From the NCBI RefSeq assembly GCF_003334255.1, contig NZ_QOWU01000124.1: a stretch of 3,240 nt of DNA; one strand, written 5' to 3'. Under the pieces are notes generated by a model, which worked only from the letters and a program-made list of their open reading frames with translations, searched no databases and was not told the origin of the DNA. Below, piece by piece: positions 1 to 300 of this stretch. Every line of letters begins with the position of its first letter. Positions within the stretch are counted from its first letter, which is position 1. The DNA comes from Escherichia coli. GTDB taxonomy: Bacteria > Pseudomonadota > Gammaproteobacteria > Enterobacterales > Enterobacteriaceae. A program made the position numbers and the translations under genes.

Positions 1-1
1 G

Positions 2-268
2 CAGTATCACGCAGAGCTGAAGAGTCTGACCGGTGCAGAAAGAACGGCGTTCATTGACGAGAACAACGGAAAATTGTCGATGAACGGGCTTATGCAGGAT
101 ACCCGGAAGAGACTGAAGGATTTGCGTAAACAGCGTGATGCCATTTACGCCGACAGTACTCTCAGTCTGGCGCAACAGTCGGCGATGGTGAAATCGGTTG
201 AGCGGGATATGAAAATTGCCGTGGATCGGTTTAACCGCGAGTACAACAAAAAAGTGGGAGTGGAGTAA
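2..268 (+). CDS. Hypothetical protein, C-terminal fragment (5' end outside window); charged, Lys/Arg/Glu-rich, probably helical
   Basis: Frame 2 is open from position 2 to TAA at 266-268 (88 codons), while frames 1 and 3 hit stops within the first 60 nt. The ORF track gives a 64-aa Met-initiated version from 74, but there is no convincing SD upstream of that ATG. Codon usage is enteric-like with rare Arg codons (2 AGA, 3 CGG). I do not recognise the product; it is not the CPS-53 integrase that follows argW in K-12. Confidence 0.5.
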   Translation, partial: QYHAELKSLTGAERTAFIDENNGKLSMNGLMQDTRKRLKDLRKQRDAIYADSTLSLAQQSAMVKSVERDMKIAVDRFNREYNKKVGVE

Positions 269-272
269 AGAA

Positions 273-300
273 CATGCCCCGTACGGAAGTGCGGGGCATG
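273..300. terminator. Perfect hairpin, 12-bp stem (one G-U pair) with GGAA tetraloop; possible intrinsic terminator, more convincing on the minus strand
   Basis: catgccccgtac (273-284) pairs with gtgcggggcatg (289-300) around loop GGAA (285-288). On the plus strand the stem is followed by cttaacggg (no U-tract). On the minus strand it is followed by UUCUUUACUCC, so it fits better as a terminator for transcripts coming from the yfdC/argW side. It sits 5 nt after the stop of the 2-268 ORF. Confidence 0.35.

Follow-up and report, generated by a model that had tools for sequence, protein, structure and literature searches.

An open reading frame beside argW in Escherichia coli placed at the 3′ end of a giant LPD38 protein gene of Stx-type prophages

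The window, the whole 3,240-nt stretch of Escherichia coli DNA that was analysed (assembly GCF_003334255.1, contig NZ_QOWU01000124.1), very probably carries at positions 2–268 the end of the late giant gene of a Stx-type podophage (Sepvirinae) whose integration site is the 5′ end of argW. On the + strand, frame 2 is open over 2–265 (88 codons) and closes with a TAA stop at 266–268. Window positions 1–500 are matched at 100% identity by E. coli SCU-104, in which the parent gene is an 8,385-nt CDS without internal stop whose 2,794-aa product, named "LPD38 domain-containing protein" in RefSeq, ends with the window peptide (aa 2707–2794). Phage DNA in the window amounts to 390 nt; the full gene and prophage were read in SCU-104, where the frame runs 8.1 kb further upstream in 100%-identical DNA. 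Judged by identity, frame and homologues, the fragment closes a giant gene that is annotated in Stx-type phages and has been widely sequenced, and as a finding it is already known and ordinary. The initial annotation had reported an 88-codon C-terminal ORF fragment with its body upstream of the window; the fragment is real and the peptide quoted for it was correct, and the ORF, described there as unplaced, is what routinely marks the right end of a Stx-type prophage in argW. A missing start codon or ribosome-binding site had been named as grounds for doubting that the frame is expressed; the giant gene starts with ATG and has GGAG (Shine-Dalgarno) 6 nt upstream.

The ORF list includes a 64-aa ORF at 74–268, and a stable hairpin lies past its stop codon, so that the fragment could be taken for a free-standing charged helical protein, either a moron or a stress-type periplasmic protein. 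The initial annotation had begun this protein at M74; the codon at that point is TTG. We consider such a protein highly improbable, since the frame has no stop up to the window edge or in the identical DNA beyond it, amino-acid conservation with homologues from Vibrio and Ralstonia phages crosses the supposed TTG start, and the 88-aa tail is invariably found as the end of giant proteins. No Spy, CpxP, DUF1090 or other small-protein family was matched, and the speculative resemblance to the first three finds no echo in the Pfam scan covering the fragment, where none of the three appears even at E ≤ 10. A scan of window 1–600 for promoters returned no candidate.

The composition of the peptide had been read as strongly charged, helical and coiled-coil-like. 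The helical character agrees with the structure prediction described below. The K/R/D/E content is 34%, against a whole-protein mean of 27.5%, and falls at the 85th percentile among 88-aa windows, which makes "strongly charged" an overstatement; a crude heptad count gave no dominant coiled-coil register. The arginine codons of the fragment are AGA (two), CGG (three), CGT (two) and CGC (one), the first two counts being as originally given. Rare arginine codons make up 5 of 8 in the fragment versus 51 of 213 in the whole gene, a small-sample excess, and the GC content of 50% is similar to that of the host neighbours. The argument from codon usage to foreign DNA is therefore weak, and the horizontal origin that had been drawn from it, itself correct, rests instead on prophage identity.

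The prophage/host junction lies at window 390/391. Positions 269–390 are the last non-coding phage DNA and form the phage-derived arm of attR; up to position 300 the window is 100% identical to phage records, and 269–390 have no similarity to the K-12 sequence downstream of that point in argW. The att core, TGTCCTCTTAGTTAAATGGATATAA as read on the − strand, occupies 391–415 and consists of the first 24 nt of the tRNA-Arg(CCU) gene argW (391–414) plus one base. It was defined by a three-way alignment of attR (window), attB (K-12) and attL (SCU-104), in which it is the sole common block and is identical in all three. The reverse complement of 269–500 follows K-12 through the yfdC–argW spacer and 24 nt of argW, then diverges fully. 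In the annotation of the Sepvirinae phage PA2 the same 25 bases are attR and lie 123 nt past the giant gene, the last gene. At the far end of the SCU-104 prophage, ~62 kb away, a tyrosine integrase stands beside an intact tRNA-Arg(CCU) gene. Taken with the SCU-104 attL, the alignments indicate that the window is phage DNA up to position 390 and that 391–414 is a 5′ remnant of argW; on the same comparison, attL restores a functional argW, preceded by phage DNA. The remnant was detected solely through alignment to K-12: ARAGORN called no tRNA in the window, and an Rfam scan of the window gave just two matches, both chance-level. The initial annotation had stated that the ORF is not the K-12 integrase and is transcribed toward a tRNA remnant, and both statements hold, the remnant being on the − strand.

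The wider non-coding stretch, 269–489, has 43% GC. Its host part, 416–489, is native yfdC–argW intergenic DNA identical to K-12 and presumably carries the original argW promoter, now parted from the intact tRNA gene. In argW itself (3310–3384 of locus L003; 42139–42213 of locus L004) the phage inserts at the 5′ end, in the first 24 nt, whereas the cryptic prophage CPS-53 of K-12 is annotated from a point 15 nt short of the 3′ end of that gene; two integrase systems thus appear to use opposite ends of argW.

Window 1–300 is matched by 186 phage records, many at 100%, and nearly all of these are Stx1- or Stx2-converting phages. Identity is 100% over the 300 nt in PA2, VT2phi_272, P27 and ArgO145, and the Stx2a series is among the matches. 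Of 5,426 complete E. coli genomes, 424 contain the fragment and just 209 have it joined to yfdC/argW, which indicates that it travels with the phage and not with the locus; the idea that this block is constantly found beside argW does not hold. The identical junction is shared by STEC strains that have stx and by the SCU-104 prophage, which is without annotated stx. argW is a standard, epidemiologically used integration site of Stx prophages (PMC8309913, PMC3519850). From these identities, the left part of the window is assigned as the right end of a Sepvirinae (933W/phi24B-like) Stx-type prophage at argW, and the earlier suggestion of horizontally acquired DNA at the junction, with a mobile element upstream, is borne out by prophage identity.

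A window with just 390 nt of phage DNA might also be what is left of a decayed prophage, of which only the right end survives by argW, with the fragment as the end of a pseudogene; IS1 in the neighbouring yfdF of the source genome is a sign of IS activity, and argW is a hotspot known to harbour cryptic remnants, CPS-53 of K-12 among them. We judge this unlikely. Long decay is at odds with the 100% identity of the fragment to phages that are functional and inducible; the matched feature is a CDS product and not a pseudogene in 25 of 25 genomes listed from the 209 with the same junction; and the whole ~62-kb prophage is present in SCU-104. That prophage also contains type I restriction-modification genes between the Q antiterminator and the esterase/lysis genes (L004 17240–20379), namely hsdM and a divided hsdS, one part of which is intact and the other a partial pseudogene, as well as a RelE/ParE-HigA toxin-antitoxin pair and two Hok/Gef genes.

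On the host side, the window contains yfdC (490–1422, − strand), a formate/nitrite-transporter-family gene convergent with the phage gene, followed by mlaA (1716–2471, + strand) and the 3′ part of yfdF (from 2653, − strand). In SCU-104 the giant CDS is followed by yfdC, mlaA, yfdF and fadL, in this order. The last 76 nt of the window (3165–3240) are the left end (IRL) of an IS1 that interrupts yfdF; IS1 lies inside or beside yfdF in several E. coli genomes. IS1 aside, the window differs from SCU-104 at 3 positions, all in mlaA. Between the convergent mlaA and yfdF, window 2471–2521 forms a hairpin with a flanking A-run and T-run (aaaaaaggtgagtcgcaaaactcaccttttttg) that looks like a bidirectional terminator. 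The sole Rfam match there, mir-556 (E = 0.21), was dismissed as a chance match.

A 12-bp GC-rich hairpin (CAUGCCCCGUAC-GGAA-GUGCGGGGCAUG) is located at 273–300 on the + strand, 5 nt past the stop codon of the giant gene. When the 69-nt segment 262–330 was folded, the free energy was −28.4 kcal/mol (z = −4.6), and 0 of 200 shuffled sequences were as stable. A scan of window 1–600 for canonical terminators called none on either strand. On the + strand the hairpin has no U-run; on the − strand an A-C mismatch replaces one stem pair and the stem is followed by a T-rich run. The hairpin does not look like a canonical intrinsic terminator and is probably a 3′-end or stabilising element of the late transcript; it may mark the 3′ end of that transcript, or act as a barrier to read-in from the host side.

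At the other end of the gene, SCU-104 has a terminator-like hairpin, CCCGAC-CATCGT-GTCGGG followed by C and T8 (L001 11843–11870), between the preceding gene and the ATG of the giant gene. Its position suggests that Q-dependent antitermination, with read-through of the hairpin, is the only route to expression of the giant gene. Directly upstream are five small conserved genes (L001 8664–11798; PHROGs 610, 611, 596, 594 and 601), one of which weakly matches a "virion structural protein" PHROG. The five small proteins are candidate partners of the giant protein inside the capsid.

The 2,794-aa protein was searched against Pfam, NCBIfam and PHROGs. Pfam domains were LPD5 (aa ~1051–1200, 1e-44), LPD1 (aa ~1361–1440, 3e-23), MuF_C (aa ~1750–1840, 8e-18) and LPD38 (PF18857; aa 2477–2682, E = 1.1e-48), and nothing was found in the first 900 aa. 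A separate Pfam scan of aa 1795–2794 gave only LPD38, a partial MuF_C (E = 0.015) and WXG100 (E = 1.1). The sole NCBIfam match was CLCA_X at aa 1182–1437, under the cutoff (152 versus 260 bits), and two HExxH motifs are present, at aa 1284 and 1551; CLCA_X and HExxH together point to putative zincin-like peptidase regions. Kyte-Doolittle maxima were 1.57 at aa 181–199 and 1.35 at aa 2450–2468, values that are borderline for membrane insertion. PHROG 616 matches end to end, and the other giant-protein PHROGs match just aa ~1880–2792. In SCU-104 and phi24B the giant gene comes last, after capsid, tail-fibre and related genes, and the phi24B annotation includes portal and terminase genes. In their account of phage-type polyvalent proteins, Iyer, Burroughs, Anand, de Souza and Aravind 2017 (PMC5512222) assign MuF_C to the PBECR (RNase-like) domains, report LPD38 from the phage type only and leave it without a function. 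By domain content and gene setting, the protein is classed as a phage-type polyvalent protein.

Polyvalent proteins as a class have been proposed to be counter-defence effectors (PMC5512222), PHROG 10089, "DarB-like antirestriction", matches aa 2355–2682, and Ralstonia phage GP4 gp68 and other carriers of the C-terminal module are annotated as DarB-like. The protein might accordingly be an injected anti-restriction enzyme that shields incoming DNA, with the C-terminal module as part of the activity. This has a low probability in our estimate: the PHROG 10089 match is confined to the common C-terminal module, which is also the end of proteins whose cargo is unrelated, neither Pfam nor NCBIfam found a methyltransferase or helicase domain, PADLOC gave no match, and BLASTP of the module against P1 DarB was not significant (best E = 1.0). 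The "DarB-like" label was rejected on the P1 DarB comparison.

The C-terminal module is the most widely shared part of the protein. With the last 455 aa as query, 7,487 representative proteins were recovered at E ≤ 1e-3 and 3,324 at E ≤ 1e-30. Among the best 150 of the 7,487, the median protein length was 2,519 aa and the match ended a median of 3 aa from the C-terminus (≤10 aa in 138 of 150); the 88-aa tail alone recovered 119 of these 150. Coverage across 116 representatives (≥1,500 aa) was 100% for aa 1,901–2,700 and 95% for the last 94 aa, against 1–42% per 100-aa block of aa 1–1,900. As these alignments have it, the protein is made up of a variable N-terminal part and a constant ~900-aa C-terminal module (aa ~1,900–2,794), and the module, as judged from the matches, is strictly C-terminal, has LPD38 at its core and is found in thousands of giant phage proteins.

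The window fragment starts just past the end of Pfam LPD38, within the conserved module. Mean top-residue frequency was 0.42 for the tail versus 0.57 for the module core. N2784 (window 233–235) is invariant; the other best-conserved tail positions are L2744 (88% of sequences), F2783 (85%; window 230–232) and R2748 (81%). AlphaFold2 models of the last 455 aa (pLDDT 69, pTM 0.35) and of the 915-aa module (pLDDT 73, pTM 0.56) are of moderate confidence overall, and both predict the tail as four helices, with block pLDDT mostly 79–90. Structural matches in BFVD were only to C-terminal parts of other phage polyvalent proteins, the PTXU04 protein included, with cargo that varies (lysozyme, RelA/SpoT, methylase, L,D-transpeptidase). 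PDB searches by sequence, with a single sequence or a 21-sequence profile, gave nothing significant, and fold comparison against solved chains gave no structural relative. Most likely the tail has a structural or docking role within the module and is not an independent protein; given its weaker conservation than the core, it could be a simple structural cap. More tentatively, and with the odds in our estimate against it, the ~900-aa module might be a universal "delivery cassette" responsible for procapsid docking and for exit via portal and tail. If so, nearly any N-terminal effector would be swappable and the tail would be a targeting or docking signal.

The phi24B orthologue gp47 is abundant in purified virions by mass spectrometry and absent from symmetric cryo-EM maps, and its authors propose that it is an encapsidated ejection protein, a conduit being likewise a proposal (bioRxiv 10.64898/2026.04.10.717836, preprint). 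Knock-down of the LPD38 protein of coliphage PTXU04 (2,198 aa) showed that it is needed for efficient infection. In the literature on virion evidence for other LPD38 proteins, the phi24B preprint and the PTXU04 knock-down were the only reports found. The giant protein, ~13% of the phage genome and present in virions as the phi24B orthologue, is encoded by the last gene of a virion/late module, and the initial reading of the ORF as accessory cargo does not stand. The same preprint calls MuF-C a "metallopeptidase domain", as opposed to PBECR (RNase-like) in PMC5512222; the HExxH motifs (aa 1284 and 1551) lie outside MuF-C. It gives the length as 2,811 aa and as ">3,000" aa, and the GenBank CDS has 2,807 aa.

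In the mechanism we propose for the late giant gene of the Stx-type podophage, synthesis of the protein would be late and dependent on Q antitermination; the product would then be housed in the capsid and leave it through the tail, before the DNA or together with it. A common packaging/ejection function, possibly procapsid docking or a conduit, would reside in the constant C-terminal module, and the envelope or cytoplasm of the newly infected cell would be the target of the variable N-terminal domains. As the module has no sequence or fold match to solved ejection proteins, its part in this mechanism is argued from architecture and context. The variable-cargo/constant-module architecture offers a testable handle on packaging and delivery, and is a property of the family rather than of the window.

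Among known systems, the closest are phi24B vb_24B_48 (gp47), which is 92% identical over its full length, and 933W L0134, whose C-terminal 455 aa are 97.6% identical. Both are likewise the last late/structural gene and have the same Pfam domains (LPD5, LPD1, MuF_C and LPD38). The N-terminal ~130 aa and a Pro-rich linker at aa ~880–900 differ from phi24B. In the argW-type allele (PA2/VT2phi_272), ~120 nt lie between the end of the gene and the att core, whereas in 933W ~4 kb follow the gene. Further away, Ralstonia phage GP4 gp68 (3,224 aa) and a protein of Vibrio phage D79 (3,066 aa) have the same C-terminal module including the tail, with 20% and 32% identity, respectively, over the last 170 aa. 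In both phages the giant gene is again last in the structural cluster, and the portal and tail of GP4 resemble those of phi24B; the N-terminal two thirds of the proteins are not alignable, and hosts and phage genera differ.

The likeness to N4 vRNAP, P1 DarB, T7 gp14/15/16 and P22 gp7/16/20 is a functional analogy only, as proteins packed in the head and delivered at infection: no sequence or fold similarity was found to solved members among T7 gp14–16, P22 gp7/16/20 and N4-like ejection proteins, and, unlike N4 vRNAP and P1 DarB, the giant protein has no polymerase, methylase or helicase domains. In N4 vRNAP, the region with its metallopeptidase domain is required for encapsidation (Iyer et al., PMC5512222). 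The phage-type polyvalent class of Iyer et al. shares with the giant protein the giant multidomain build, the setting among virion genes of a portal-terminase phage, an HExxH metallopeptidase-like region, PBECR/MuF_C and LPD domains. Beyond that description (PMC5512222), LPD38 is seen here as the core of a ~900-aa, invariably C-terminal module that is combined with unrelated N-terminal parts.
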